Positions 35,589 to 51,468 of a DNA stretch of 64,000 nt are shown piece after piece. The notes under the pieces are model-generated. The model was not told where the DNA came from. It saw only the letters and a list, made by a program, of their open reading frames with translations, and searched no databases. This DNA is from Candidatus Latescibacterota bacterium. Lineage in GTDB: Bacteria > Latescibacterota > UBA2968 > GCA-2709665. Both the position numbers and the translations under genes were made by a program. The stretch lies in NCBI GenBank assembly GCA_965203805.1, contig OZ241917.1:2912001-2976000 (forward strand). Direction: 5' to 3'. Position 1 is the first letter of the stretch. Each line of letters begins with the position of its first letter.

Positions 35589-35822
35589 TGGCGCTGCTTC
35601 GCTTTGCTCAGCCGCAACCAAATACGCGCAAGTGAATGAGGGCGCTAACGACGTATTTGTCACTCCCACCATGAGGGGGAGTCGCAGAAGCCGAGCCGAT
35701 CCCTGAGCTTGTCGAAGGGCCGGCGAAGGCTGATACAGCGGGGGGATCGCACCGCCCTTTTTGTTGACTGGCAGCATGAAAAACATGAACCCATTTTGCG
35801 GAGAAGTCTTACTGTAAGACTC
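35589..35822 (+). mobile_element. 234-bp non-autonomous derivative (MITE) of the IS at 42834-44572
   Basis: Both ends match: GCGCtGCTTCGCTtTGCTCAGCCGCAACCAAA and CATTTTGCG..GAAGTCTTACTGTAAGACTC. Confidence 0.85.
35659..35747. repeat. REP-like element inside the MITE
   Basis: Copy of the 32713 family with one CCCTGAGCTTGTCGAAGGG unit (35701-35719). Confidence 0.8.
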
Positions 35823-35987
35823 CAATTGGATTGCGCCAGAAACACCCGGACAGACGATGTCGAAGTTTGGCAATTGCCCTGTTGAATATCGAATCCTGCT
35901 TTCGTAAATTCAATGACTTTTGTTTTCTTCCCTATAGCAGAATCTGCATTGGGCAAGATTCACATCACGACCACGGTTGGAGATAAA

Positions 35988-38186
35988 ATGAGTCTTGAAG
36001 CGACCGATTCTAGGAATAACAATCCGGACCAGACCTCAACTGAAACTGGCCGTGGCGCCCCGGCGGGAAAGCTGAACGTCAGCAACTTCATCTGGAGCAT
36101 TGCCGATGACGTGCTGCGGGATGTTTTCGGCAGGGGCAAATACCGGGATGTCATACTGCCCATGACGGTCATACGCCGTCTCGACTCCGTTCTGGAACCG
36201 ACGAAAGACGCGGTGCTCCAGATGAAAGCCCGGTTGGACGCGGCAGGTGTGACCAACCAGGACGCGGCGTTACGCCAGGCATCCGGCGAGGCCTTTTACA
36301 ACGCGTCACCATTCAGGCTCCGCGATCTGACCTCCCGGGCCAGGCAGCAGCAGTTAAGCGCCGACTTCGAGGCGTACCTTGACGGGTTCTCCCCCAATGT
36401 GCAGGAAGTCATCGACAGGTTCAAGTTTCGCAATCAGATCCCTGAATTGGTGGAGAACGATTTGCTCGGGTTTCTGCTTGAGAAATTCCTGGATCCGGCG
36501 ATCAACCTCAGCCCCAAACCCGTGCTGAACGCTGACGGATCCGTGCGCCTGGAACCGCTCGACAACCACGGAATGGGCACTGTGTTCGAAGAACTGATAC
36601 GGCGTTTCAACGAAGAGAATAACGAGGAAGCCGGCGAGCACTTCACGCCTCGCGACGTCGTACAACTCATGGCGCGGCTGATATTCATACCTGTTGCCGA
36701 CGAGGTCAAATCAGGCACCTACCTGGTATACGACGGCGCTTGCGGCACCGGCGGCATGTTAACCGTCGCCGAAGAGACGCTCACCCGACTTGCCGAGGAA
36801 CACGGCAAAGACGTATCGGTCCATTTGTACGGCCAGGAAATCAACCCCGAAACCTATGCCATCAGCAAGGCCGATCTTATCCTGAAGGGCGAGGGCGTCG
36901 AGGCCGACAACATGCGGTATGGCTCGACCCTATCCGCCGACGCCTTCCCCGCCAACGAATTCGACTTCATGTTGTCCAATCCTCCCTATGGCAAGAGCTG
37001 GAAAGGCGACCTGGAACGCATGGGCGGCAAGTCTGACATTCGGGACCCGCGTTTCATTGTGGACCACGGAGACGATCCGGAGCACTCGCTCATCACCCGT
37101 TCCAGCGACGGTCAGATGATGTTCCTGGCCAATATGCTGAGCAAGATGAAACAGGACACATCACTCGGAAGCCGCATTGCCGAGGTCCACAACGGAAGTT
37201 CCCTTTTCACCGGCGACGCCGGACAGGGTGAGAGCAACATCCGCCGATGGATCATTGAGAACGACTGGCTGGAAGCAATCGTCGCGCTTCCGCTCAACAT
37301 GTTCTACAACACCGGCATCGCCACATACATCTGGGTGTTGTCGAACCGCAAACCCAAGCATCGCCAGGGCAAGGTGCAACTCATAGACGCCACGCAATGG
37401 TCCAAACCGCTACGCAAAAACCTCGGCAATAAAAACTGTGAACTGTCGGACGAAGACATCCAGCGCATCTGCGATGCGTTCCTTGCCTTCGAAGAGACCG
37501 AGCAATCGAAGATATTTCCGAATGAAGCGTTCGGTTACTGGAAAGTCACCGTCGAACGTCCTTTGCGACTGAGTGTCGAGCTGACACCGGAACATCGCCA
37601 GCGCTTCCGCACAACATGCAAAGACGCGAACGAAGAACTACTCGCCGAGGTCATAGATCGCGTGGCGTCGGAACTAGGCGACGAGCCTCACGGTGACTTC
37701 AACCGGTTCCTGGAAGTCGTTGCAAAGTACGCGCCTGAGTGCGGGGTTAAACTGACAACGGGACGCAAGAAGCTGCTTCAGACCACCCTGGCATCACGCG
37801 ACGAGACCGCGGAGCCCGTTATGAAGAGGATCCATCGTTCAGGAAACGTCGAACCCGATTCAATCCACGGCCGTGTTGAAACCACCATCGACGGTAGAAA
37901 ACGCATCGTCGAGTACGAACCCGACAGCGAACTTCGCGATACCGAACAGGTGCCTTTGCTCGAAGAGGACGGTATCGAGGGCTTCCTGCGCCGTGAGGTG
38001 CTGCCTTATGCACGGGACGCCTGGTACGATCCGGCCAGCGTCAAGATCGGATACGAAATCAGCTTCACGCGCTACTTCTACAAGCCCCAACCGATGCGAA
38101 CGCTGGAAGAAATCCGGGCCGATATACTGGCTCTGGAGCGGGAAACCGAGGGACTGTTGGGAGAAATACTCGGACAGCAATGCTAA
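35988..38186 (+). CDS. hsdM: Type I RM methyltransferase subunit
   Basis: FIWSIADDVLRD, AGEHFTPR, YDGACGTGG, NPPY. Confidence 0.95.
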   Translation: MSLEATDSRNNNPDQTSTETGRGAPAGKLNVSNFIWSIADDVLRDVFGRGKYRDVILPMTVIRRLDSVLEPTKDAVLQMKARLDAAGVTNQDAALRQASGEAFYNASPFRLRDLTSRARQQQLSADFEAYLDGFSPNVQEVIDRFKFRNQIPELVENDLLGFLLEKFLDPAINLSPKPVLNADGSVRLEPLDNHGMGTVFEELIRRFNEENNEEAGEHFTPRDVVQLMARLIFIPVADEVKSGTYLVYDGACGTGGMLTVAEETLTRLAEEHGKDVSVHLYGQEINPETYAISKADLILKGEGVEADNMRYGSTLSADAFPANEFDFMLSNPPYGKSWKGDLERMGGKSDIRDPRFIVDHGDDPEHSLITRSSDGQMMFLANMLSKMKQDTSLGSRIAEVHNGSSLFTGDAGQGESNIRRWIIENDWLEAIVALPLNMFYNTGIATYIWVLSNRKPKHRQGKVQLIDATQWSKPLRKNLGNKNCELSDEDIQRICDAFLAFEETEQSKIFPNEAFGYWKVTVERPLRLSVELTPEHRQRFRTTCKDANEELLAEVIDRVASELGDEPHGDFNRFLEVVAKYAPECGVKLTTGRKKLLQTTLASRDETAEPVMKRIHRSGNVEPDSIHGRVETTIDGRKRIVEYEPDSELRDTEQVPLLEEDGIEGFLRREVLPYARDAWYDPASVKIGYEISFTRYFYKPQPMRTLEEIRADILALERETEGLLGEILGQQC

Positions 38187-38723
38187 GAATCGCCTTTATT
38201 CAACGTAGTCCTTTACAAGGACGGGATTATCCCCATATTAAAGGCAGCGTTTAACGTGGCTGACGTCGCGCGCCATAGTCAACGTAGCCTTTACTATAGG
38301 TCGAATAAACGCGCATGCAAATCGTCAGCGTTATACACCAGAAGGCCGGCGCGACCCGGCGAGCAACGGACATCGAGTCCTAGAATAACTCTGCGAACGC
38401 ACGATAATTTCGATGGGCGACATGGAGGATCTGACGGGAACCACGTACACGGAAGCCAACAATGTCCTTAACCGATTGACTCGTTGCTGCAAGTTGCATG
38501 AATTCACCTGTCAGTCGCGGAACCGTAGGTTCATTAATGGGAGCTAAGTTTACCAGTTCCACGAATCCGGCTCGAATGGTGACCAGTGATCGTCGCACAG
38601 CTGATTGATCAACCTCAGAGGGATTTAAGTGTGTGACAGTCGCAGTAAGTCCAGCGGCTCTGGCGGTGGTGCTACAATTGCGCTGACAACGTCGACGACG
38701 ATACTTAATGAGAGGTATTCACA

Positions 38724-39194
38724 ATGAATTTTCTATTATTTCGCTTATTCTCTATCATAGGATTTGTGGCTGTGGAGGTGCCCGTAGAGGCTCAGAGTCC
38801 GACTGATAAGGCCTCGATTTCCGAAAGGGCAATGGAGTCGATCACGTGGTGCCACCCCTTGACCGTGATAGAACTCGTCATCGTGATTCTTGTGTTCGTT
38901 GCAATGCCGATTTATTCGTGGTATGTGAGCAAGAACGTAAAAAGCCCAAACGACCTTCCAAAACGTAAGGGTCTCAATCTGCCCGCAGGATCCGTGAGAA
39001 GCATGATTGCGTTGTTAGTCGTCGGCTCGTTCGTGAATTTCCTGATCTTTGGGGAGTCGGTGTTGGCTACGCATTTCGATAAGATCCTCGCCGCATTCGG
39101 GACGCTAAGCGGTAGCATCATCGGCTTTTATTTTGGTAATCGTAGCGCCGAGCCCCTTCAAACGGGCGACAATTCAATTGAAAAGCCAATGTAA
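38724..39194 (+). CDS. Small membrane protein (signal/TM plus about 3 TM)
   Basis: Hydrophobic segments; GLNLPAGSVRSMIAL and IIGFYFGNRS; GAGG RBS. Confidence 0.7.
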   Translation: MNFLLFRLFSIIGFVAVEVPVEAQSPTDKASISERAMESITWCHPLTVIELVIVILVFVAMPIYSWYVSKNVKSPNDLPKRKGLNLPAGSVRSMIALLVVGSFVNFLIFGESVLATHFDKILAAFGTLSGSIIGFYFGNRSAEPLQTGDNSIEKPM

Positions 39195-39307
39195 TTAAGT
39201 TTGGATCGGATTGCGTTTCCTTACGACGTAGGCCGAGAAACTCGTTGAGAACGACTGAAACGAGATACGATTACACCTGTGGCTTACCCCATCGGAGGAT
39301 GGTCGAA

Positions 39308-39790
39308 ATGAAACTGGACAGGCTCTTCAAAGACTTCAATCTACAAAAGGTGAAATTAAACCTAAAGGTAGTTCAGTTCGAAGTTTCCTTTCAACAAGCA
39401 GACAAGGATGCGGCTTGGGACCTCTATGTGGAAATGCTTACCAGAGTCGTAACTCAGGCACTTCCACGCGATGTCGGAGATGAGCTGGCGGCACTGGAAA
39501 GCGTACACTCCCTTTTTCCAGCAACGCGTGAAATCTTACGACATCACGGGCGGGCATCATTACATTTCAGTAAGGTCGCGGTTCCCGTGCTTAATCAAAT
39601 TATCCGGCCCTTCACCTCAAAGTGGCACAGGCAGAGCTTAGGCGGCGCTTTCGACCGTGAGACCGGACGTGCGGAGTTTCGAAAGGAACTAGAAAGTTTG
39701 CAGGTAGACCTACGCAGATACAACAGGATGCTTGCGGAGATTGCTAATGTGGAAGATTTGACCGACTTGGAAGAATGTAAAGGAGGATAG
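39308..39790 (+). CDS. Hypothetical alpha-helical protein
   Basis: AAWDLYVEMLTR..ALESVHSLF..LNQIIRPFTSKWH; GGAGG RBS; coupled to the TIR gene. Confidence 0.75.
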   Translation: MKLDRLFKDFNLQKVKLNLKVVQFEVSFQQADKDAAWDLYVEMLTRVVTQALPRDVGDELAALESVHSLFPATREILRHHGRASLHFSKVAVPVLNQIIRPFTSKWHRQSLGGAFDRETGRAEFRKELESLQVDLRRYNRMLAEIANVEDLTDLEECKGG

Positions 39791-39792
39791 CA

Positions 39793-40350
39793 ATGCAGAA
39801 AGTTCCACGACACAGGGTATTTGTAAGTTTCCATCAGGAAGACGACTTCTACAAGGATCTGTTCGTACAAATGATGGAAGACGACATTGTGGACGAATCA
39901 GTTGGAGATGGTGATATAGACGATGACAATTTGGCTACCGATACAGTCCGCAGGATTATCCGTGATGGGTACATCAGAGATGCTACGGTCACGGTCGTAC
40001 TTGTCGGACCCTGCACGTGGCAGCGAAAACACGTTGACTGGGAAATAGGTTCTAGCTTGCGAGCTACCAAGCGGAATCCTAGATGTGGCCTGTTGGGGAT
40101 TCTGCTTCCGAATCATCCGAACGCAACTACTGAAAAATACAACTCTCGTTTAATACCGCCGCGTCTTGCTGACAATACTTGTGGAGAAGATCCTTACGCG
40201 CTAATCTACGATTGGACATACAAGACTTCAAGCGTTCGAAATTGGATCCATCGGGCCTTTGTTCGGAGAGATGGTACGCCACCAGACAACAGTAGGGTGC
40301 AGTTCCGATACAACAGAAGTGGATCCTGTTCGACGGGTTGGCAGAGCTAG
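39793..40350 (+). CDS. ThsB-like TIR domain protein (DUF1863/MTH538 type)
   Basis: VFVSFH, TVTVVLVG..TWQRKHVDWEI (catalytic Glu), GLLGILLP, IPPRL. Confidence 0.88.
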   Translation: MQKVPRHRVFVSFHQEDDFYKDLFVQMMEDDIVDESVGDGDIDDDNLATDTVRRIIRDGYIRDATVTVVLVGPCTWQRKHVDWEIGSSLRATKRNPRCGLLGILLPNHPNATTEKYNSRLIPPRLADNTCGEDPYALIYDWTYKTSSVRNWIHRAFVRRDGTPPDNSRVQFRYNRSGSCSTGWQS

Positions 40351-40355
40351 GAGCT

Positions 40356-41660
40356 ATGACCAGCATTCCGCTTCCATACCCAGCCTACAAACCGACAGGC
40401 GTCCCGTGGCTAGGGGACTTACCGGAGCATTGGGAAATGCGCCGGGGTAAGTCCCTCCTGACCCCGGTTGATATTCGTTCCGAGACCGGGGACGAAGAGT
40501 TGTTAACAGTTTCTGCTCAGCAGGGAGTTATCCCAAGGGAATCCACCGACGTAACTATGTTTAAAGCAGAATCATACGTTGGCTACAAGCTATGTTGGCC
40601 GGGAGATCTCGTGATCAACAGTTTGTGGGCTTGGGCACACGGATTAGGCGTTTCCCAGCATTACGGCATCGTTAGTACCGCCTATGGTGTCTACCGCCCG
40701 TTGTCAAGAATACATACTCAATTTATCCATCAGTTCGTCCGCTCAATCCCATTTCAATGGGAGTTGCAAGTACGCTCAAAGGGAATATGGGTATCGCGAC
40801 TTCAATTGACCGACGAGGCATTTCTAAATGCGCCGTTCCCCGTCCCAACCGTCGCCGAACAAGCCGCCATCGTCCGCTATCTTAATCACAGTGAAGAACG
40901 AATCCAGCGCTACATAAGAGCGAAGGAGCGGTTCATCCGGCTCCTTTGGGAAGAGAAGCAGACCGTAATTCACCGCGCCGTGACCCGCGGTCTCGATCCG
41001 AACGTACCCCTCAAACCCTCAGGTGTTGAATGGCTCGGCGACATCCCGGCACATTGGCAGGTTTCCAGGGTGAAGGCTGAATTCGTCTCTTTGGACAATC
41101 GTCGCGTGCCATTGAGCGCGATCGAGCGAGGAGCAATGGAAGAGCGACGATATGACTATTATGGCGCATCTGGTGTAATTGATAAGGTTGAGGACTATAT
41201 TTTTAACGATGAAGTATTGCTAATTGCAGAAGATGGAGCAAATCTCGTTCTTCGCAATTTACCACTTGCCATCATAGCTCGCGGAAAGTTCTGGGTGAAT
41301 AACCACGCACATGTATTAAAGCCTCGACATGGCAACCTTGGCTATTTGGCGGCGGCAATGGAGAGTCTAAACTATACTCCGTGGATATCCGGGGCAGCAC
41401 AACCGAAACTCACACAAGATCGACTCTTAAACATCTCGATCGCCGTGCCACCCATAGTTGAGCAAGATCAAATCATCGCCAAGGCAGAAGAACAGACAAA
41501 CAGACTGACTTTGGCCATCACACGTGCTCGGAGACAAATCGAGTTGATGCAGGAATACCGCACGAAGTTAATTGCGGACGTGGTTACCGGCAAGCTGGAT
41601 GTGCGCGGGACGGAGGTCGATTTGCCCTTTAGATTTACTGAGACGGCACCGGCAGTATAG
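40356..41660 (+). CDS. hsdS: Type I RM specificity subunit
   Basis: YKPTGVPWLGDLPEHW, EQAAIVRYL, KPSGVEWLGDIPAHW, LIADVVTGKLDVR. Confidence 0.95.
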   Translation: MTSIPLPYPAYKPTGVPWLGDLPEHWEMRRGKSLLTPVDIRSETGDEELLTVSAQQGVIPRESTDVTMFKAESYVGYKLCWPGDLVINSLWAWAHGLGVSQHYGIVSTAYGVYRPLSRIHTQFIHQFVRSIPFQWELQVRSKGIWVSRLQLTDEAFLNAPFPVPTVAEQAAIVRYLNHSEERIQRYIRAKERFIRLLWEEKQTVIHRAVTRGLDPNVPLKPSGVEWLGDIPAHWQVSRVKAEFVSLDNRRVPLSAIERGAMEERRYDYYGASGVIDKVEDYIFNDEVLLIAEDGANLVLRNLPLAIIARGKFWVNNHAHVLKPRHGNLGYLAAAMESLNYTPWISGAAQPKLTQDRLLNISIAVPPIVEQDQIIAKAEEQTNRLTLAITRARRQIELMQEYRTKLIADVVTGKLDVRGTEVDLPFRFTETAPAV

Positions 41661-42965
41661 TAATCCGATCGAATCTCGAAAAGTGTCACTATCTACGAAA
41701 ATGGAATGAACAATGCACCGATCTGAGGAATCTCAAGATGACGATTTTATGCGTGCCGTGAAGATCGGGGAAGAAAACGCCGAATGCCTGATGCAGATGC
41801 AGAAGTGGTGCAAGCATGTTGAAATTGAACGAACTTCGGAAGGGCTATATGCGCAATTTACAGGCCTACCTATAGCAAACCACAGCTTGGCGTGTCCGAA
41901 AGTGGAGGGTAAGGCGGAGTCTATGAATCTCCGCTGGATTTTCTCGGATTTTCTTGCAGAATACTGCGCCACCTGTCCTCATCACGCACCAAACGGGGAC
42001 ACTTCGTGGGGTAGGGAGATCATTGACAGGCGCCGGAGAGAAGCCCAAGAGCGCCAGCAAGCAAAAGAGGAGGAAGCCTCCCGAATATCCAGGCTACGCG
42101 AAGAGTTACGATCAATATCCCGTGGCATTAGTGCGGAAACAGAGCCCGAATCGCACCAAGTCCTCGGATATTTAGAAGCGATATTTTCAGAAACCGAAGA
42201 CGAACGAATCGAAGCCTTCGAAAGTTTGAAGCAATCTGCCCGCGTGGGTGCAGATCTCTTTCCGGAGGCTGCTGTCGACTTGGCCTTGACGCTTGCAGGC
42301 ACCAAGGATTTTGCCATTTTCCTGCTTCCTGTCTGTACTGAACTTGCAAAGAAGCGCTCCGATTTAGGCACAAACCTAGGTCGTATAGCAATCGACAACA
42401 TTGAGAAGGGACTATGTCCAGAATTGTCCGCTTCGGTACTTGATGCACTCGGCGACGGCATTGGGTATCCACTTAGCGAACCGTCTATTGAGAAACTGCT
42501 ACTTTCACAGGATCATGAATACCCAATCGGTGGCTGGAACGAAAGTAAACCTGAGTACCCGCATAGCACCGCAGTTATTGTACGCAGTTTTGACGCCGAT
42601 CCGTACGTGGTTCAGAGCATTGTCCGTCGCGAACTGCAGAATGAGAATCCCGCTATACGCTTCGGGTTGTGTGGAGCAGTCAGGCTTATACAAAACCAAC
42701 GCCCCGAGCTAATTCGGAACCTGCTCGATGACTTCCTTCAATCACTCGATCTTCGAGAGGTCGCACGGTCGGGCGACGGGACGCCATCGGATCAAATTAT
42801 CGGCATTCTGCAATCAGCATTTCAATATTCCCCTAGCGCGGCTTCGCTATGCTCAGCCGCAACCAAAGAGGTGGTAGTCAAGAGCAGATTGTTTTTGGGT
42901 ATGTAAAACGGCGTTCATCCCCTATGATGTTGGTACCCACCGCCATCAAGGTAAGGAGGAACGCC

Positions 42966-44528
42966 GTGAAAGACTTCGTGGACCAATATAGTGAAAAAAT
43001 CACGGGCGTGGTATCCTGTTTTGATCGGATTCTGTTCAAGGGGTATCTGCCGCTGGGATTTGGAACTGCGATGGAGCGTTTCATCAGCAATCAAGGTTTG
43101 TTGTTGAAGGATTTCAAGCGTTTTGTAACGACGCATTCCGAAACGATCAAAGCGCACGCGGAGGCGATGGCGAACAAGCGCGAGCGCCCGTTCCTCTATC
43201 TCGACCGCAACAACGTCAGGAAAGAGGATGAAGCGCGACGCATCGCCCAACGAGATGGGATCACACGCGGCCTGGTCTGTGTGTTTCGCGCCGTGGAAGG
43301 CTGTCAGAGTTTCAAGCTGGTGCCGGGGGAAGGAAGGCCTCGCCTGCGCAACGCCCAGCGGAAGTGCCTGTGTTACTACTTCTACTATATCGACCGGGAG
43401 TTCGGGTTGTTGCATGTTCGCATCCAGTCGTGGTTCCCCCTGGTGGTGCAGGTCTGTCTCAATGGCCACGAATACCTGGCGCGCAAGCTTGATAAAAACG
43501 GCATTGCCTATGACAAATCAGACAACGCGTTTCTTTGGATCGACGATGTGGCCCGGGCGCAACGGTTTGCCGATCGTTTTGTCGAGAAAAATTGGCCGCG
43601 CATTCTCTCCGCGCTTGCTGGCAGGGTCAACCCCCTGCTCAAAGACCTGCTTTCGGAAATGGACTATTACTGGGTCGTTGACCAGGCCGAGTTCGCCACC
43701 GACGTGATGTTCCAAAGCCCCCACGCCCTGAAGGTGCTGTATGAAAACCTGCTCAGACATACGGTGCTGTGCTTCTCTCCCGAGGATATCCTGACCTTCC
43801 TGGGCCTGCCTGCCGAGCATAGCCCGGCGCAGGCAGGACGCAAACTCCACGGCAACTTTCAGGGCGAAGTCCTCACGGACTTCAAGAACAAACGCCACCC
43901 CGGCGCACGGGTCAAACACCGGATGTGTGAGAACTGGATTAAAATGTACGACAAACAAGGGTGCGTACTACGCGTCGAGACAGTGATCAACCATCCAAGG
44001 CAGTTCAAGGTCCGCCGCTGGGGCATACGGCAAGGACAACGGATGATGGGCTGGTATCCCATGGCCAAAGGGGTGGCCAACCTCTACCGCTATCGGGAAA
44101 TCTCATTGACGGCCAACCAACACTATCTTCAGGCGCTGTCCGCCGCACCGAACACCGCGAAGAGCCGTCACAGCCTCACCGCACTGGCCCGACCACGCAG
44201 GCACAAGGGGCGTACCTATCGGGGCTTCAACCCTGCCGATACCAACGACCTCGCCCTCTTCACCGCCGTCTTGAAAGGCGAACACGCCCTGATGGGCTTC
44301 CGCAATCAAGACATCCGCAAACACCTCTTCAAACAACCCAGATCCCTCGACCAGCGCCGACGGCAGGCCAACGCCGTCAGCCGACTCCTCAAGCGACTAC
44401 ACGTTCGGGGCCTGATCGCTAAAATCCCTCGTTCCAGAAGATGGCGCGTCACACATTCCGGACACGTTACACTTGCTACTTCCCTGACCCTTTACGACAA
44501 CCACACAACCTCTATGCAAGCAGCGTGA
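42966..44528 (+). CDS. Putative transposase (520 aa) with YDK..RVE motif and C-terminal winged HTH
   Basis: Only long ORF in the element; AAGGAGG RBS; IKMYDKQGCVLRVETVIN; VSRLLKRLHVRGLIAKIPRSRRW. Confidence 0.75.
   Translation: MKDFVDQYSEKITGVVSCFDRILFKGYLPLGFGTAMERFISNQGLLLKDFKRFVTTHSETIKAHAEAMANKRERPFLYLDRNNVRKEDEARRIAQRDGITRGLVCVFRAVEGCQSFKLVPGEGRPRLRNAQRKCLCYYFYYIDREFGLLHVRIQSWFPLVVQVCLNGHEYLARKLDKNGIAYDKSDNAFLWIDDVARAQRFADRFVEKNWPRILSALAGRVNPLLKDLLSEMDYYWVVDQAEFATDVMFQSPHALKVLYENLLRHTVLCFSPEDILTFLGLPAEHSPAQAGRKLHGNFQGEVLTDFKNKRHPGARVKHRMCENWIKMYDKQGCVLRVETVINHPRQFKVRRWGIRQGQRMMGWYPMAKGVANLYRYREISLTANQHYLQALSAAPNTAKSRHSLTALARPRRHKGRTYRGFNPADTNDLALFTAVLKGEHALMGFRNQDIRKHLFKQPRSLDQRRRQANAVSRLLKRLHVRGLIAKIPRSRRWRVTHSGHVTLATSLTLYDNHTTSMQAA
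43805..43837. repeat. 33-bp palindromic element inserted in frame
   Basis: CCTGCCTGC..GCAGGCAGG; relative at 60569-60631. Confidence 0.75.
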
Positions 44529-45917
44529 CCAAACTTCTATGCATTTTGCGTTGAAGTCTTACTGTAAGACTCTAAGGCGGTTGATACGCACCTTGCCCGG
44601 TCAATCTCACGCGTTCGCCCGGCCGTTCAGAAAAACATCGTCAGTGTTTACGAAAGACAGTTCTTAGCTCAGAGGGATCGATGGAAAAAGAACGAAAAAG
44701 AGACTGAACGAAAAGAGGTCTCGGAATCAGAAAATGTGGCGATTCAACGCCTACTGGCTTGGGCAAAAGATGACGCACTAGAAATTGAGATTCGCCGCGA
44801 TTCGGTTCAGGCGTTGAAGTCCGCCTGCACATACGCGACTACGGCCATGCTATGCCATTTTGACTTCCTCTTAGGATATTATGCAATCGTCAGCGGTAAC
44901 GAAAAGCCACCGGATCCACCTCCGAGGATTCTGCATCCCAATCAACCACGGGACACTCAGCTTGATCAACTGCAACTATTCAGGCGCAACCAACTCTGGG
45001 GATTCTTTAAGCAAAACTTGCGTTCATGCCTGCACGAGATTTGCAAAGCAAAGCCGCTAGAGGCGTTCGATTTGGTCTGCGGCTGTTTGGAAGACTCCTC
45101 AGAACCGCTTGCGGACGATTTCAAGGCGCTCTGCGTGTCGCTTCTTGGTGAACTTGGCCGAGACTACAGGCTTCAGCCACGTGTTTTGCCTCATTTGTGG
45201 CGCGCATTGATGGACTACGAATCTGCATGGGTTCGCACCAAAGCCTTACATTCTACTGTCGAGTTGTTTTCATTGTCTTCAACCTCACCACCGGCAAACC
45301 TCGTAGACACAATGATCATCCACCTCCAAGATTCAAAGGTCGGCGTTCACCAAGCTGCCTTGCGAGTTGTGTCTACATTTCCCCGTTGGTTTGACAAGAA
45401 CCAGTCGATCGAAATTCTTAGCTGTCTCGGACGACACCTTGATGTGTACGGCGATGACAAGTACCAACTTGAAAAAATATGCACAGGAATACTGAAAATC
45501 TCTTGTCGTGATAAGCGCCTCAAGCCAGTCGCTTTGCGTATGGTTGAGTCTGTGTATCCGACAGGAGAGGAATTTGTAGATAGAGACATCGCAGAACAGC
45601 TGACTCATTTCTACAAGCCAAGCAATAGATTCGCAGATTCAGTGGCCAAGGATGTCGGTACCTATTTGGCAAGCTATGACCGAGACCGCTACAACCATTA
45701 CGGGTTTTCGGAACGTCTCCGTATGTTCAAGTGGCTGCACGAACTGCCGATAGAAACACTCCAACGTGTCGCCGATAACCTTCTTTCGTCCGCAGAAGAG
45801 ATGGCTGGGAATGATTACTGGGAATCCATGCATTTCGCAAGTCTCTTTCAACATTTGCGGATGGCTGAATACGAGCATGCCGTGTTGGATTCTGTTATAA
45901 AATCTTTACCTGAAGAA

Positions 45918-46206
45918 CACTGCTGTCCAAGAACCGTCGGATTCTCAGAGATAAGGTTCGAAATATAGCTTCAATTGGCGATTTTGGACGGGTTTGACCC
46001 GGATAATGAAAACCAGGTTGCCATCGTCTGCGCAATGCTGTCCAAGAACAAAGTGACTCATCCAGTGGCCATAATCGTGCTGTTCCCGTCTCATTAAGCC
46101 CGTGAAATAGGCACTTTTTGAAACTCACGCTACCTTGGTCGAAGCGCTGCTTCGCGGAAGTGAACCAGATGCTGTCCAAGACAGAAACCGATTTTGGACA
46201 GGTGTG
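45918..46206. mobile_element. 289-bp MITE with imperfect TIRs and 9-bp TSD
   Basis: TSD CCTGAAGAA at 45909-17 and 46207-15; ends CACTGCTGTCCAA / TTGGACAGGTGTG. Confidence 0.88.
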
Positions 46207-46340
46207 CCTGAAGAACCAAGGTTTGAGACGCTCCGTGCGGATTTATATAAGATCGCGATGATCTCTGCAGGAAATGCGTCATTACAGGCTGGTGACAAAA
46301 CGACGGCTGTAGAATTCTTCGAAAAGGGAAGGCATGGAGC

Positions 46341-47837
46341 GTGATACGGGAACCGGAATTGGATCTTAAGCATGCCGCTAATTCAGCCCGGCTTATCTAT
46401 GACATACGCGTGGTTTTGAACTCGAGTACTGAATTCAATAGGGATTGGGCTAAGGAGATCGGTTCTCTGATTGACCGTATTGACGAGATCCTGGCTAAGA
46501 CGCCAATCGCGCATGTCTCATTCGAGTGGAAAGTCATGATTGCTGGGTTTCGTGTCTTATTGGGTCAGGTAAACAGTGTGGCGATTGCCGAGGGCGGCGA
46601 AGGTGACTTGACTATCGAAAGAGAAAAACGTGATGTCCTTTTCGGCGAAATGAAACGATTGGTCACGTCAAATGCCGGCCTATTACCGATCAGCACGAAG
46701 TCATCGTGGCAATCATTGCTCAATGCAGGGACAGTTGATTCCGATAGATTACGCGAATTTCTGTCAATGGTCCCGTTATCCACGTTATATTGGCAAACGA
46801 GGGAATTTGACCTTCCAGATCGGAATGCGTTTAAAGGAACCGAAGCAAAACCGAAACCGATTGTACGGGTTGTTGTATTTCTGGATAATGCTCCGATCGC
46901 AAGCCCACAGCTCTTGCGGCCAAACATTCTATATCCGCTGAAATTTAGAGTCCATGGTGTAACTTGGCCTGTCGACGGGAAGCGCTTACGCCTTGATTTG
47001 ATGACTACACTTCCACAAGAGGAGTTCTCATTGTCCGAATACACTCTCGACGCACCATCTTGTATCAAAAATGGTGAGTACCAGGGTGAATTGGCGGGCT
47101 ATATCAAGTTCAACTCGGCGCAAAGCAGCATGTTGGATGATCTTGCATTCACAGTTCGCGGAGCATTCGATACACCTGACGGGCATCCTATCGAGGTTCC
47201 AGTTATTGGTCACAATGAGTTGCGCCTCAAAATTGTCGATGAAGTCAGTCATCCTTTGATGACGGGAAACCGACGCTTGGACAGGCACGTTGCGGAGCTT
47301 ATTTCAACTCTGATATCAGACTGTCCTGAAGTTCGAGCCGAACTACCTAGCTTGTTGGTAATGCTTCACGCTTTGACCGGCTTGTTGTCTACTTATGCAC
47401 AAGAAGCCGTTTTCAAAGGGAGAAGCGACGTTTCTGAGTCGGAATTCCAGACAAAAGTGACGGGAGATTTGCGAAGACAACTCGGACCAGACGTACAAGA
47501 ACACCCACACCAGGCGGGCGGAATCCCTGATATCAGATTTCGAGGCGTAATTGTTGAGCTAAAGGTCGAAAAAGAAAACGGGAATCGAAATCACATAGCG
47601 AAAAAATACGCGGCCCAGGCAGTTCAATACGCCAGCCCTGAGGCGCGGCAGGTAAGTATTCTCCTTGTACTGGACCTGACGGAAAAGGAAAACCCACCCG
47701 GCGACATTCGCAATGACATTATGCTTACTGATGTACCGACTCATGGGACAGTTGATAGTGCCGAAAAATTCCCGTCCAAGGCGTTTGTGTTCGTGATAAA
47801 CGGGAACATGAAGAACCCATCAAGTTACTCCGCGTAA
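46341..47837 (+). CDS. Hypothetical protein with C-terminal PD-(D/E)xK nuclease-like domain
   Basis: ESEFQ..QEH..GGIPDI..VELKV..QAVQY; GTGA overlap with the upstream gene. Confidence 0.65.
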   Translation: MIREPELDLKHAANSARLIYDIRVVLNSSTEFNRDWAKEIGSLIDRIDEILAKTPIAHVSFEWKVMIAGFRVLLGQVNSVAIAEGGEGDLTIEREKRDVLFGEMKRLVTSNAGLLPISTKSSWQSLLNAGTVDSDRLREFLSMVPLSTLYWQTREFDLPDRNAFKGTEAKPKPIVRVVVFLDNAPIASPQLLRPNILYPLKFRVHGVTWPVDGKRLRLDLMTTLPQEEFSLSEYTLDAPSCIKNGEYQGELAGYIKFNSAQSSMLDDLAFTVRGAFDTPDGHPIEVPVIGHNELRLKIVDEVSHPLMTGNRRLDRHVAELISTLISDCPEVRAELPSLLVMLHALTGLLSTYAQEAVFKGRSDVSESEFQTKVTGDLRRQLGPDVQEHPHQAGGIPDIRFRGVIVELKVEKENGNRNHIAKKYAAQAVQYASPEARQVSILLVLDLTEKENPPGDIRNDIMLTDVPTHGTVDSAEKFPSKAFVFVINGNMKNPSSYSA

Positions 47838-48347
47838 TGGCTTTGGCGAATTCGCGTCAAGGCCAAGGCATTTGGTGCGAATTCGTTGAAATCATCTCTA
47901 TCGTAACAATTGACTGAGATCGCCCCACCGATTCTGCGTGATACGGCATCCGATCGGACACAACGCTTTCGCCACCTATGCAACCAACGCCCGCTCGGCG
48001 ATATCAGGCGATACGGCTAATCAGGAATTGTGCCATTAAACCAGAAATAGACTCAAAAGCATAATTTCAGCACAATTGCGGCATAATGTATTTCATAGAT
48101 ATCTGTTTATTTGGATCTTATTACATTGTTCCTTTTTGACAAAGCATTATGCCTTACGCAAAAAAGTCGCAATTCATATGTTCGGTGAGCGGATCCCTCC
48201 TGATATGATGAAGACCGTGCTCGGTTTAGCCTAACCGCGATTGCCGCGCCAACTGGGAATGCTGACCGATGTCGGAGGTTGCCTGACGCTGGAACCTGAA
48301 TTTCCATTGGCCTGTAATTGACTGAGAAACGTCGGAACTACAATTGA

Positions 48348-48406
48348 ATTCTATAACCCATTAATTTTATTGAAGTTGTTTAATTGACGGGTAATTGACT
48401 GGAAAC
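48348..48406 (+). repeat. 59-bp direct repeat, copy 1
   Basis: 57/59 identical to 50254-50312. Confidence 0.9.
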
Positions 48407-48595
48407 GCCACCTGCCGACCGGCGTCCGCGCGCGATTCACCTCGGATGTGCATACCGAAAAGATACTCGTAAATGAGGCGGTGGCCAATCTGTCAGAGAA
48501 GACCGATCAGCCGCACTCCTGCGCCCCGAGGAAGCCGTGATCATCGGCAGGGCGGAGATCGCCAATGGCTTCGACCTGACGCAACAGGCCGCAAA

Positions 48596-50062
48596 ATGAC
48601 AACCAATAGAAATCGAGACTACCTGCTCGACCTGATAAGAGAATTGCGCAACCTGCCTCATGAGACCGAATGGGTCGAGTTCAAGGTAAACCACCACGAA
48701 CCGAAGACCATAGGTGAGTACGTCTCCGCACTTTCCAACGCGGGAGCCCTGCATGACAAGACTCACGGATACATCCTGTGGGGCGTTGAAGATGGAACTC
48801 ACGACATTGTTGGCACAGACTTTTTTCCGGCTGTTGCGAAGAAGGGCAGCGAACCGCTGGAGACGTGGCTACTCCAGTTATTAAAACCACGCATAGACTT
48901 CCGGTTCCACGAAGTAACGATTGACGGGAAGCGGGTCGTAATTATGGAGATTGATCGTGCCTCCCGGCACCCAGTCGCCTTCGCGGGCGTCGAGTTTATC
49001 CGTATTGGCAGCACAAAGAGAAAACTCAAAGACTATCAGGAAAAGGAACGAGAACTCTGGCGCGTTTTCGACCGGGTGAGTTTCGAAGATGGCATCGCCG
49101 CCGAGCGAGTAAGTGACGGTGACGTTCTGTCAATGATCGACTACCCTGCATACTTCGATTTGCTTGAATTGCCGCTTCCCGATGGTCGTGAAGCGATCCT
49201 TTATGCATTGCAGAGTGACCGACTCATCGCCCCCGGCGAAGCGGGCGGCTTCGACATCACCAATATGGGCGCCATTTTGTTCGCCAGGAACCTTCCCGAC
49301 TTCCCGAATCTGAAGCGCAAAGCCATGCGCGTCATACAGTATCGTGGCAATGGCCGGATAGAGACATTGAGAGAGCAGGAAGGCGTTCGCGGCTATGCGG
49401 TCGGATTCAAAGGAATTATCGACTACATCATGGCGCTCGTGCCCACGAACGAAGTGATTCAACAGGCCTTGCGAAGGACGGTGCCGATGTTTCCCGACCT
49501 GGCCGTTCGAGAACTCGTTGCCAACGCGCTCATCCACCAGGACTTTCTCGTCACGGGTGCGGGACCGATGGTAGAGATCTTCGATGACCGCATTGAGATT
49601 ACGAATCCGGGCGAGCCCCTCGTGGATACGCGACGTTTTTTGGACGCATCACCCAGGTCCCGAAACGAGGCCCTGGCCTCACTGATGCGCCGGGTTCGCA
49701 TCTGCGAGGAACGGGGCAGCGGGATCGACAAGGTTGTCCTTGAAATTGAGTCATACCATCTGCCGGCGCCGCTTTTCGAGGTTCCTCCGGATTCTACTCG
49801 CGCAGTTCTCTTCGCCCACAAGACCCTGGCTGACATGGACGGAGAGGAGCGGATAAGAGCTTGTTACCTCCATGCATGCCTCAAGTACGTGATGCGAGAT
49901 TACCTTACCAATGCATCGCTTCGAGAGAGATTTGGCATCGAAGAGAATAACAAGGCTATCGCCTCTCGCCGCATTCGCGAGGCCATGGACGCTGACATGA
50001 TCAAGCCGTTTGACGAAAATGCCTCCCGAAGAATGATGAAATACGTCCCATTCTGGGCCTGA
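48596..50062 (+). CDS. AlbA_2 (Schlafen-like) plus HATPase_c_4/RecG-C domain protein
   Basis: ETEWVEFK, SALSN, ILWGVED, RELVANALIHQD, ITNPG, EERGSG, YVPFWA. Confidence 0.88.
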   Translation: MTTNRNRDYLLDLIRELRNLPHETEWVEFKVNHHEPKTIGEYVSALSNAGALHDKTHGYILWGVEDGTHDIVGTDFFPAVAKKGSEPLETWLLQLLKPRIDFRFHEVTIDGKRVVIMEIDRASRHPVAFAGVEFIRIGSTKRKLKDYQEKERELWRVFDRVSFEDGIAAERVSDGDVLSMIDYPAYFDLLELPLPDGREAILYALQSDRLIAPGEAGGFDITNMGAILFARNLPDFPNLKRKAMRVIQYRGNGRIETLREQEGVRGYAVGFKGIIDYIMALVPTNEVIQQALRRTVPMFPDLAVRELVANALIHQDFLVTGAGPMVEIFDDRIEITNPGEPLVDTRRFLDASPRSRNEALASLMRRVRICEERGSGIDKVVLEIESYHLPAPLFEVPPDSTRAVLFAHKTLADMDGEERIRACYLHACLKYVMRDYLTNASLRERFGIEENNKAIASRRIREAMDADMIKPFDENASRRMMKYVPFWA

Positions 50063-50253
50063 TCTCAATTGGCATGGATTGATCGACGGCCCGACGTCTC
50101 ACAAACCGCCAGGCATTGTATCAATTGATGAATAGATGGTCGAACGAACCAAAAATGGTCGAATGGGCCGACATATCTTTCTTTTTTAATAAGTTACGTC
50201 ACAGAGGAGCGATGGACGGCCAATTGATCAGGAAACACCCGATAGCCGTTGGT

Positions 50254-50312
50254 ATTCTATAACCCATTAATTTTATTGCATTTGTTTAATTGACGGGTAA
50301 TTGACTGGAAAC
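50254..50312 (+). repeat. 59-bp direct repeat, copy 2
   Basis: 57/59 identical to 48348-48406. Confidence 0.9.
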
Positions 50313-50406
50313 TTCCAATGATCGCCGACGCCACTCCGCTACGTCCGTGCCCCAACCTGCTGTATACGGTCTATGCAATGCGGCATTGAAGATTGGAAGA
50401 ACGGCC

Positions 50407-51468
50407 ATGATCGAATACAAGACCGGCGACATCCTCTCCGAGCAAGCCGAAGCCCTGGTCAATACCGTCAACTGCGTAGGAGCCATGGGACGTGGCATCG
50501 CACTTCAGTTCAAACGAGCCTTTCCTGACAATTTTAAGGCGTACGCAGAGAAATGTAAGCGAAAAGAAATACAACCAGGAAAGGTGTTTGTCTTCGAAAC
50601 TGACGAACTTTTCCATCCACGTTACATCATCAACTTCCCTACCAAACGGCATTGGAAAGGCAAGAGTCGAATGGAGGATATTGAATCCGGCCTCGCGTCT
50701 CTCGCAAAGGAAATCAGGTCACACCACATTCGCTCGATCGCCATTCCCCCGCTTGGCAGTGGGCTGGGTGGGCTAAACTGGCAGGAGGTACGTACGCGTT
50801 TGGTATCCGCTCTGGACGAATTCGAAGATGTCAGAATCGTGATATTTGAACCGGGAGGCGGACCGGCTGATACGCGCCCTAACCGTTCGCGCGATGTGCC
50901 CAGGATGACCGCCGGGCGAGCCGTTTTGGTCGAACTCATGGAACGCTACAGGTCAGGCCTTATGGATCCGTTCGTAACTCTGCTTGAAGTGCATAAGCTT
51001 ATGTATTTTATGCAGGTCGCGGGTGAGCCATTGAGGTTAGAATTCGCCAAAGGCCCTTACGGACCGTATGCAGAAAACCTTCGCCATGTGCTGAACGCAA
51101 TTGAGGGGCATATGGTGAGTGGATATGAAGATGGCGGCGACGCACCCGACAAGCAACTGGAACTGGTTCCGGGCGCGCTTGCGGACGCTCGAGCGTTTCT
51201 TGAGCACAAGGCCGAAACGCGCGCTCGTTTCAATAAGGTTTCGGATCTCGTCGACGGATTCGAGTCGTCGTTCGGTCTTGAACTGCTCACAACGGTTCAC
51301 TGGATCGTCAATGAAAAGAGGGAATTTGTCTTCGACGAGATCGTTAACGACATTTACGCATGGGACAAAAGAAAGAGACAATTCTCAAAGCGTCAGATCG
51401 GGATTGGTTACCAAGTTCTGTGTGAGAAGGGCTGGATTGATCACGTCGACATGCCGGAAACCCTATGA
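50407..51468 (+). CDS. darG: DarG-like macrodomain protein
   Basis: ALVNTVNCVGAMGRGIALQFK, INFPTKRHW, PPLGSGLGGL; C-terminal LEVHKLMYF..GPYGPY..GLELLTTVHW. Confidence 0.8.
   Translation: MIEYKTGDILSEQAEALVNTVNCVGAMGRGIALQFKRAFPDNFKAYAEKCKRKEIQPGKVFVFETDELFHPRYIINFPTKRHWKGKSRMEDIESGLASLAKEIRSHHIRSIAIPPLGSGLGGLNWQEVRTRLVSALDEFEDVRIVIFEPGGGPADTRPNRSRDVPRMTAGRAVLVELMERYRSGLMDPFVTLLEVHKLMYFMQVAGEPLRLEFAKGPYGPYAENLRHVLNAIEGHMVSGYEDGGDAPDKQLELVPGALADARAFLEHKAETRARFNKVSDLVDGFESSFGLELLTTVHWIVNEKREFVFDEIVNDIYAWDKRKRQFSKRQIGIGYQVLCEKGWIDHVDMPETL

Follow-up and report, generated by a model that had tools for sequence, protein, structure and literature searches.

Pairings between replication initiators and transposons are known from the HUH Rep proteins, which go together with IS91, IS200 and Helitrons. 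To our knowledge, the transposases of prokaryotes fall into the DDE, DEDD, HUH Y1/Y2, serine recombinase, tyrosine recombinase and casposase classes. For Rep_trans, the family of rolling-circle initiators that includes pT181 RepC, pC221 RepD and RepSTK1, the hosts listed in the available parts of three reports are plasmids, filamentous phages and conjugative elements only (PMC13107129; PMC5714925; PMC4797284). In the accessible portions of the literature we found no description of an insertion sequence (IS) of the Rep_trans type or with a TBP-like fold. Here we analyzed a window of 64,000 nucleotides (the whole stretch studied, from contig OZ241917.1 of a Candidatus Latescibacterota bacterium; all coordinates refer to it), which contains an element of 1739 bp (42834..44572, forward strand, as all features below) without terminal inverted repeats (TIRs) and with a single gene for a 520-aa protein. 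That it represents a genuine IS family, unclassified by Pfam and NCBIfam, is very nearly certain. We consider it fairly probable that the transposase of this new family is a Rep_trans-like tyrosine nuclease, with a mechanism that we infer. The chances seem evenly balanced that it constitutes a new catalytic class of prokaryotic transposase, namely a Rep_trans-like tyrosine nuclease of TBP fold that would make a strand-specific nick at Y-T|A and act through a rolling-circle or single-strand intermediate.

The element interrupts a HEAT-repeat-like host gene without Pfam match. As the original prediction had proposed from the restored codons, excision of the 1739 bp (by a scripted join) connects the 5' half (41713..42833) and the 3' half (44573..45968) in one open frame of 838 codons (...QYSPKAV...). 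The left junction reads ...TATTCCCC|TAGCGCGGC (in a longer reading of the element side, ...TATTCCCC|TAGCGCGGCTTCGC...) and the right one ...TAAGACTC|TAAGGCGG (in an alternative reading of the element side, ...CTGTAAGACTC|TAAGGCGG...). Because CTA is repeated at both junctions, at 42833..42835 followed by an element-borne G and at 44572..44574 followed by a target-derived A (44575), the starts 42833, 42834, 42835 and 42836 are equivalent registers of one 1739-bp insertion. Uninterrupted homologues of the host protein exist, mostly of ~860 aa, and at the joint they favor K (AAG), including the two closest ones (86% and 83% identity), while R ends none of the 12 commonest two-residue strings found there among 78 proteins. 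At the DNA level, the host gene of the window was not found in 14 genomes of the same genus. The ends of the element are common to copies in two sister genomes (G001 and G008) and to a 1711-nt metagenome repeat contig.

We found that the element is mobile, since its relatives are multicopy and a site occupied in G001 (L064) is exactly empty here (CACCTAAGAGTCC), the empty form ...CAGCACCTAAGAGTCC... facing the occupied form ...CAGCACC|TAAGGCGGC...GACTC|TAAGAGTCC.... Of 41 related genomes, this one counted, 8 contain protein matches, with 18 in G001 and 11 in G008, and the other genomes of the genus have no transposase match or fragments only. The present genome holds one full copy, together with matches to both ends and to an internal 33-bp repeat. 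Among them is a non-autonomous derivative of 234 bp (35589..35822), a miniature inverted-repeat transposable element (MITE) bearing the same two ends as the full element. It has CTG at the left junction and CCA at the right one, as had been noted before along with the CTA of the full copy, and both look like decayed CTA. It lies ~90 bp upstream of hsdM. A fuzzy scan of this genome gave 18 left-end-like and 7 right-end-like sites, the full copy and the MITE counted, the others being degenerate remnants. The 1711-nt contig comes from a marine/sponge metagenome (run X4) and spans 42832..44575, with unrelated sequence past both ends and the host flanks uncovered.

The family is large and widespread. 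Its matches form 7142 clusters (50% identity) at E<=1e-3, a number that falls to 3287 when E<=1e-10 is required and to 732 with E<=1e-30. Loci confirmed in species-representative genomes number 528 and are spread over many phyla. The record titles of the best 80 of these 528 loci name Latescibacterota, Planctomycetota, Desulfobacterales, Acidobacteriota, Gammaproteobacteria, Burkholderiales, Victivallales, Chloroflexi, Armatimonadetes, Gemmatimonadales, Hydrogenedentes, Verrucomicrobiota and one bin labelled archaeon. Many members occupy contigs of 1.7-2.2 kb. Homologues on RefSeq plasmids amount to 15 records, all of them large replicons (25-33% identity; Paraburkholderia, Rhodococcus, Burkholderia, Mycobacterium, with Paraburkholderia phytofirmans OLGA172 and Rhodococcus jostii as examples of cultured carriers), annotated as hypothetical or ArsR, and none of 50,697 phage records matches the transposase. 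Matches in the ESM Atlas are clusters of 'hypothetical protein' only. The same genus also has another subfamily, only distantly related (29% identity), whose open frames measure 512-542 aa (G005:C83:13807-14994, G001:C2:20616-21827, G001:C4:390071-391258). Also, two unusual arrangements were observed among related copies. In one, the right end of a copy (...GGAAGACTCTAA) abuts the left end of the next element (CGCGGGC...) with one shared CTAA (L073:204-245), an arrangement at a contig start that resembles a head-to-tail tandem or a circle junction. The other is a partial tandem in G001 (L062:989-4083), where a left end and ~1.4 kb are fused to a second copy starting ~33 nt inside its left end.

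The ends were defined by comparing 36 copies from seven multicopy lineages, each within its lineage. The sequence shared by the copies ends on the left at C(C/T)TA and on the right one base beyond CTA. TA is present at the left junction in 36/36 copies (CTA in 30, TTA in 6), the base before TA being C or T only; the right junction has CTA in 35/36, the exception (L057) having a truncated end, and the base after this CTA is A in 34/35. When one sequence per lineage or copy is taken, TA is found on the left in 30/30 (CTA 25, TTA 5; next base A 16, G 11, T 2, C 1) and CTA on the right in 32/32 (alignment A6; next base A 22, T 6, C 3, G 1), the right terminus of the window (44566..44575) reading AAGACTCTA + A. 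Among the copies of the window (1), G001 (9) and G008 (9), C precedes the left TA in 19/19 and A follows the right TA in 18/18 intact ends, and no insertion in the opposite orientation relative to the non-palindromic CTAA was found in them. The target is an oriented 5'-C-Y-TA-A-3', used in one orientation only, and only TA is universal at both junctions. The original prediction had placed the insertion 3' of CCC without target-site duplication (TSD). This does not agree with the left junctions just described, and the comparison of copies with empty sites that it proposed gave the exactly empty L064 site together with C-Y-TA-A as the target instead. Its statement that the ends are not inverted repeats of each other holds, as no reverse-complement match of the two ends was found in any lineage examined.

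The base after the left CTA deserves attention. In G008 this base (G or A) co-segregates with three internal single-nucleotide polymorphisms that define subclades, and is therefore element-borne. Taken together, these subclades and the host K at the joint imply that the element begins no later than R-CGCGGC and that the A next to the right CTA comes from the target. A register with the insertion 3' of CTAN, starting at 42837 and ending in the element's own CTAA, was at first prompted by the near-identical G008 copies, in which the left post-CTA base is G or A and the right end is always CTAA. It was rejected because the post-CTA base is element-borne in G008 and because the restored host codon would be AGG (R), whereas the closest homologues have K. 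A 4-bp TSD was discarded too, as the bases after the left and the right CTA differ in 9/22 elements, and so was a 3-bp TSD as a general rule, given that the L119 family has TTA on the left and CTA on the right in 6/6 copies. Two other G008 sites were considered: that of L053 has only 72-80% identity in four relatives and is polymorphic (A/G) at the critical base, and for the L054 flank no orthologue was found.

The transposase gene spans 42966..44528 (520 aa). The listed open reading frame (ORF) begins at ATG 42849 and has 559 aa; we place the start at GTG 42966, which has a GGAGG in front of it, because query residues 41-42 are where every close homologue begins. AlphaFold2 gave models of high confidence, both for the full length (97 sequences; pLDDT 91.9, pTM 0.86) and for the domain 1-395 (43 sequences; pLDDT 90.7). 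The predicted fold is a TBP-like double-lobed beta-saddle (residues 1-395) followed by a C-terminal winged helix (400-520). Going by these models, the fold is neither RNase H-like, HUH/RRM nor DEDD, and lies outside the known transposase classes. In agreement with the earlier failure to see DDE, HUH, DEDD or recombinase motifs, no family of Pfam or NCBIfam matches the catalytic part, and the scan of 93 members gave no transposase model, only winged-helix families matching among the 25 listed (at the C-terminus, HVO_A0261_N in 40/93 and HTH_45 in 16/93). Sequence searches against the PDB returned weak MarR-type matches only.

Conservation across 97 sequences points to the candidate active site. 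Invariant residues are D20, R21, E111, Y138, Y140, G147, P158, N166, E242, Y328, R336 and E338, and at least 90% of the sequences keep K326 and K330. The candidate catalytic residues D20 (43023-43025), E242 (43689-43691), Y328 (43947-43949) and E338 (43977-43979) all lie in predicted beta-strands, Y328 in strand 323-330, and the three acidic ones, on three separate predicted strands, are candidate metal ligands. The invariant E111 (43296-43298) and Y138/Y140 (43377-43385) belong to the saddle's first lobe, pseudo-symmetric to the lobe of Y328, and from their conservation may form a second active site. The gene of the window also carries an in-frame palindromic insertion of 33 bp (43803..43835; 11 aa; perfect stem GGCCTGCCTGCCGAG...CGGCGCAGGCA), placed in a disordered loop (pLDDT <50 at residues 283-291). 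It is absent from the common 1706-bp form, being skipped by the contigs of 3/4 metagenome runs, and corresponds to a repeat dispersed over this genome, which has 13 copies of it when <=5 mismatches are allowed. In one metagenome copy of the element, a comparable insert of 30 bp occupies another position (behind 43426).

The relation to Rep_trans was suggested by the original prediction, which saw in KMYDK..LRVE the YxK..RxE active site of these initiators and proposed a Foldseek comparison with structures of the RepC/RepD type. Carried out against the PDB, this comparison brought three solved Rep_trans initiators among the best matches of the transposase. The full model has 4cij (RepSTK1) as its best match (E 3.9e-3, probability 0.96-0.97), with 4cwe at probability 0.87, and the domain model has 4cwe_A (0.92), 4cij_C (0.85) and 4cwc_A (0.72), all within the top ten; di-domain ARO/CYC proteins and TBPs are listed as well. 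Matches in BFVD are giant-virus TBPs and several Inoviridae proteins, including A0A345MNV4 (E 1.2e-3, probability 0.99), which the consulted part of one report gives as a Rep_trans initiator of Inoviridae (PMC13107129). The best VIA match of the transposase is TBP itself. The starts of the VIA ranges would place D20 on D46 of RepD and on D9 of RepSTK1, provided that the first strand is ungapped.

The motif reading is supported, and it extends beyond the tyrosine. Compared with RepC, whose motifs were read from RepC and its 22-34% identical relatives, the transposase has S-x-F-D20-x5-G26-x-L28 for S44-F-D46-x5-G52-x-L54, E242-x-A244-x-D246 for D142-x-A144-x-D146, K326-x-Y328-x-K330 (KMYDK) for R189-x-Y191-x-K193 and L335-R336-x-E338 for W211-R212-x-E214. 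These motifs follow each other in the same order, that is D in the first strand, (D/E)-x-A-x-D, basic-x-Y-x-K and R-x-E. The matching RepC residues are demonstrated as catalytic in the portion of the work seen (PMC4797284), and correspond to motifs N', I, III and IV according to the accessible text of another (PMC5714925). On the DNA side, the loop of the pT181 origin hairpin (L125:4357-4380) carries ACTCTAA, the same heptamer as the right terminus of the element, as the resemblance pointed out earlier for ACTCTA had anticipated; being short, it could be a coincidence (4439 bp contain 2 matches, where 0.79 would be expected). We assume that pT181 RepC nicks this heptamer between CT and AA.

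Both ends of the element carry hairpins, as originally predicted, and they did not fare alike. The left one (42838..42860) consists of GCGGCT (42838-42843), 11 nt and AGCCGC (42855-42860), starts two bases past CTA and is followed by a conserved AACCAAA (42861-42867). Across 30 sequences it covaries: 94.4% of cells pair, against 22-60% in slid controls, both partners are changed in 4/6 pairs (GCGGCC/GGCCGC becoming GTGGCC/GGCCAC, for instance), and the score was reached by 0/500 shuffles. Its loop varies from 3 to 13 nt, which would be easier to reconcile with a folded strand than with a spaced dimer site. The right hairpin first proposed (44555..44571), composed of AGTCTTA (44555-44561), CTG and TAAGACT (44565-44571), turned out to be lineage-specific, as it occurs here and in G001, whereas most G008 copies have it in a broken form (AGTCACAC) and other lineages lack it. 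The conserved one lies at 44533..44557 (ACTTC-ATGCA-TTT-TGCGT-GAAGT), ~20 nt from the element end, with the general form CTTC-x-ACGCA-loop-TGCGT-x-GAAG; in folds of single sequences its mean z is -1.9, and z is below -1.5 in 18/32. A further hairpin in the leader (42908..42967; GGCGUUC...GAACGCC) has the GGAGG ribosome-binding site inside it and extends as far as the GTG start. The left non-coding 139 nt (42837-42975) fold as RNA with -55 kcal/mol (z -4.58), and the arms of the leader hairpin recur upstream of the ORFs in most lineages. From the predicted structure, this hairpin probably sequesters the ribosome-binding site and thereby provides translational control of the transposase.

A possible mechanism may be outlined for a tyrosine nuclease of the Rep_trans kind. 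The winged helix and the saddle would recognize the two different subterminal hairpins on one strand. Tyr328, aided by a metal held by D20, E242 and E338, would nick that strand within the Y-T-A core of the left end, and the protein would stay bound to the 5' end of the element strand through a 5'-phosphotyrosine while the strand is peeled off or displaced. A second nick at the CTA of the right end might release or circularize the strand, the circle junction recreating ...CTCTA-R..., and the reverse reaction would join it into an oriented C-Y-TA-A target. Under such a scheme, the TA or CTA on both sides would be the shared nick core and not the duplication left by a staggered cut. A reaction of this kind would give TA/CTA on both sides without staggered cuts, and would account for insertion being strictly oriented, for the two ends being unlike and for the base that follows the left CTA being element-borne.

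Several observations weigh against a Rep_trans-like enzyme working in this manner. The Foldseek scores are modest (E ~1e-3 to 6e-3, TM 0.2-0.3, root-mean-square deviation above 11 A). PF02486 (Rep_trans) gave no match for the query at E<=1, nor genome-wide at E<=10, nor among the 25 families listed for the 93 members, and a search of 168 genomes from the phylum with its model gave no match. When the family profile (A1) was compared by hhalign with two Rep_trans alignments, the probability was 0.2 (A3) and 0.35 (A8), only FD..G.L being aligned; these alignments are shallow (Neff 1.3 and 2.4). In this sense, homology of the transposase to Rep_trans is not demonstrable at the level of sequence profiles, and the original idea finds its support in fold and motifs. 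The conserved right-end hairpin has weak or ambiguous support on fixed alignment columns and moderate support overall, and RNAalifold predicts no pairs for the right-end alignment. The four sequencing runs consist of contigs without host flanks, in which no circle junction or excision product is visible. The G008 copies display no clear strand bias, 7 being head-on and 4 co-directional with replication (n=11; origin taken at dnaA, 2.67 Mb, and terminus opposite). Moreover, a real target duplication of 2-3 bp could account for the TA/CTA at both junctions. Considering all this, the protein probably works like Rep_trans enzymes and is probably a distant relative of them, not a member of PF02486.

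The last two points lead to another explanation, unlikely in our view, in which the TBP-fold transposase acts as a hydrolytic nuclease dependent on metal, cuts both strands in a staggered manner, moves the element by cut-and-paste and leaves a true TA/CTA duplication, without any covalent tyrosine. TA stands on both sides of every copy and only once in the exact empty site, there are four invariant acidic residues, and the lack of a clear replication-strand bias and the weak scores to Rep_trans are also in line with it. However, an element with no TIRs and with unlike ends is hard to fit with a symmetric synaptic complex, insertion into the non-palindromic CTAA is strictly oriented, a 3-bp duplication fails in the L119 family, and the invariant Tyr has a K-x-Y-x-K setting comparable to that in Rep_trans. 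If the protein only bound DNA, as a regulator or partition-like factor, and the element was moved in trans by an enzyme of the host or of another mobile element, then TBP as best VIA match and the ArsR regulator name given by PGAP to one homologue would fit; yet it is the sole ORF in elements across many phyla, the MITEs keep just the ends, no common neighboring gene appears among the loci read, and binding alone would leave the invariant D, E, E, Y, K and R unexplained, which makes this possibility very improbable.

The resemblance of fold and motifs to RC initiators, and of architecture to Rep-Arvir, would also suit an integrated miniature RC replicon (a plasmid or satellite) whose protein is a replication initiator and whose integration depends on something else. 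We give this even less credit, because of the many chromosomal matches per genome at different sites with precise, identical ends, the size of just 1.7 kb with no second gene, and the near absence from extrachromosomal records described above (no phage record and 15 plasmid records only, all large replicons). As for a very divergent member of a characterized family (IS200/IS605, IS91, IS110 or IS630), the lack of TIRs, the subterminal hairpins, the short oriented target and the TA at the junctions recall one or another of them. No transposase model of Pfam or NCBIfam matches the query or the 93 members, though, and the confidently predicted fold is not RNase H-like, HUH/RRM or DEDD, so that we hold such a membership to be extremely unlikely. 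The Rep_trans-like tyrosine nuclease is the explanation that we favor.

Regarding its genomic surroundings, the element sits in a type I restriction-modification island (35913-54464) with hsdM at 35913-38186, hsdS at 40338-41660 and hsdR at 51465-54464. Between hsdM/hsdS and hsdR there are the broken 838-aa HEAT-repeat-like gene, a gene of 498 aa of unknown function and two further proteins, a Schlafen/AlbA_2 + HATPase_c_4 protein (48473-50062) and a Macro-domain protein (50347-51468). The genes of this interval may be embedded defence genes.

If our reading is true, Rep_trans initiators and these insertion sequences would constitute a second, independent pairing of a replicon initiator with transposons. 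Its confirmation would add one more transposase class, and would mean that a second family of RC initiators has also given rise to transposons. It would remove a blind spot of IS annotation as well, as current pipelines label the family hypothetical or ArsR regulator despite its hundreds to thousands of clusters in many phyla, and its copies break assemblies and interrupt genes, here one inside a restriction-modification island. Furthermore, it would offer for study a small single-protein system with a short oriented target. Whatever its chemistry, the predicted transposase fold lies outside the known classes.

Among the known systems, IS200/IS605 (IS608, ISDra2) shares with the element the lack of TIRs, unlike subterminal hairpins, a short oriented target abutting one end, many MITE-like derivatives and possibly the logic of a tyrosine nuclease. 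Its enzyme, in contrast, is a HUH Y1 protein of ~150 aa with an unrelated fold, for which no Pfam or NCBIfam match was found here, the predicted fold being the TBP-like saddle; in addition, it has a strong lagging-strand bias that is not seen here, and TA on both sides is a feature of the present element. IS91, ISCR and Helitrons (HUH Y2) are kin to plasmid RC initiators, as proposed here for our element, and have no TSD and an oriented tetranucleotide target, but they differ in the HUH fold, the two tyrosines on a helix and the ends, and no HUH motif or Pfam match (IS91/ISCR) was found in the transposase. Likewise, the DEDD domains of IS110 (PF01548/PF02371) match neither the query nor appear among the families listed for the 93 members. 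IS630/Tc1-mariner has TA at both junctions as here, where the target is asymmetric and no DDE family match, RNase H fold or TIRs were found.

Closer to the proposed enzyme are three groups of TBP-like or Rep_trans proteins. In Rep-Arvir/RepSNJ2 (DUF7845), according to the available part of its description, the catalytic domain is N-terminal, TBP-like and kin to Rep_trans in structure only, with a MarR-like winged helix behind it, and a hairpin cis element is recognized (PMC13107129). It differs in serving archaeal virus and plasmid replicons, as opposed to a bacterial IS, and in its tyrosine context, KHYYM instead of KMYDK. PF25227 (DUF7845) matches neither the query nor appears among the 25 families listed for the 93 members. 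The MOBT relaxases belonging to ICEs (integrative and conjugative elements) and IMEs (integrative and mobilizable elements) are Rep_trans enzymes recruited to a DNA mobility other than replication, as stated in the text at hand (PMC5714925). They nick oriT for conjugation without integrating DNA, and match PF02486, which the transposase does not. The Rep_trans initiators themselves share with the predicted transposase a TBP-like saddle as catalytic domain followed by a DNA-binding domain, the order of the motifs, a hairpin-bearing DNA substrate and, in pT181, the ACTCTAA of the nick loop. The transposase differs from them in being ~200 aa longer, with large helical insertions, in a Y-to-E spacing of 10 residues against 23, and in its C-terminal winged helix in place of a four-helix DNA-binding domain. 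Finally, while Rep_trans proteins are carried by plasmids, phages or ICEs, this one is carried by a chromosomal multicopy element with its own MITEs.

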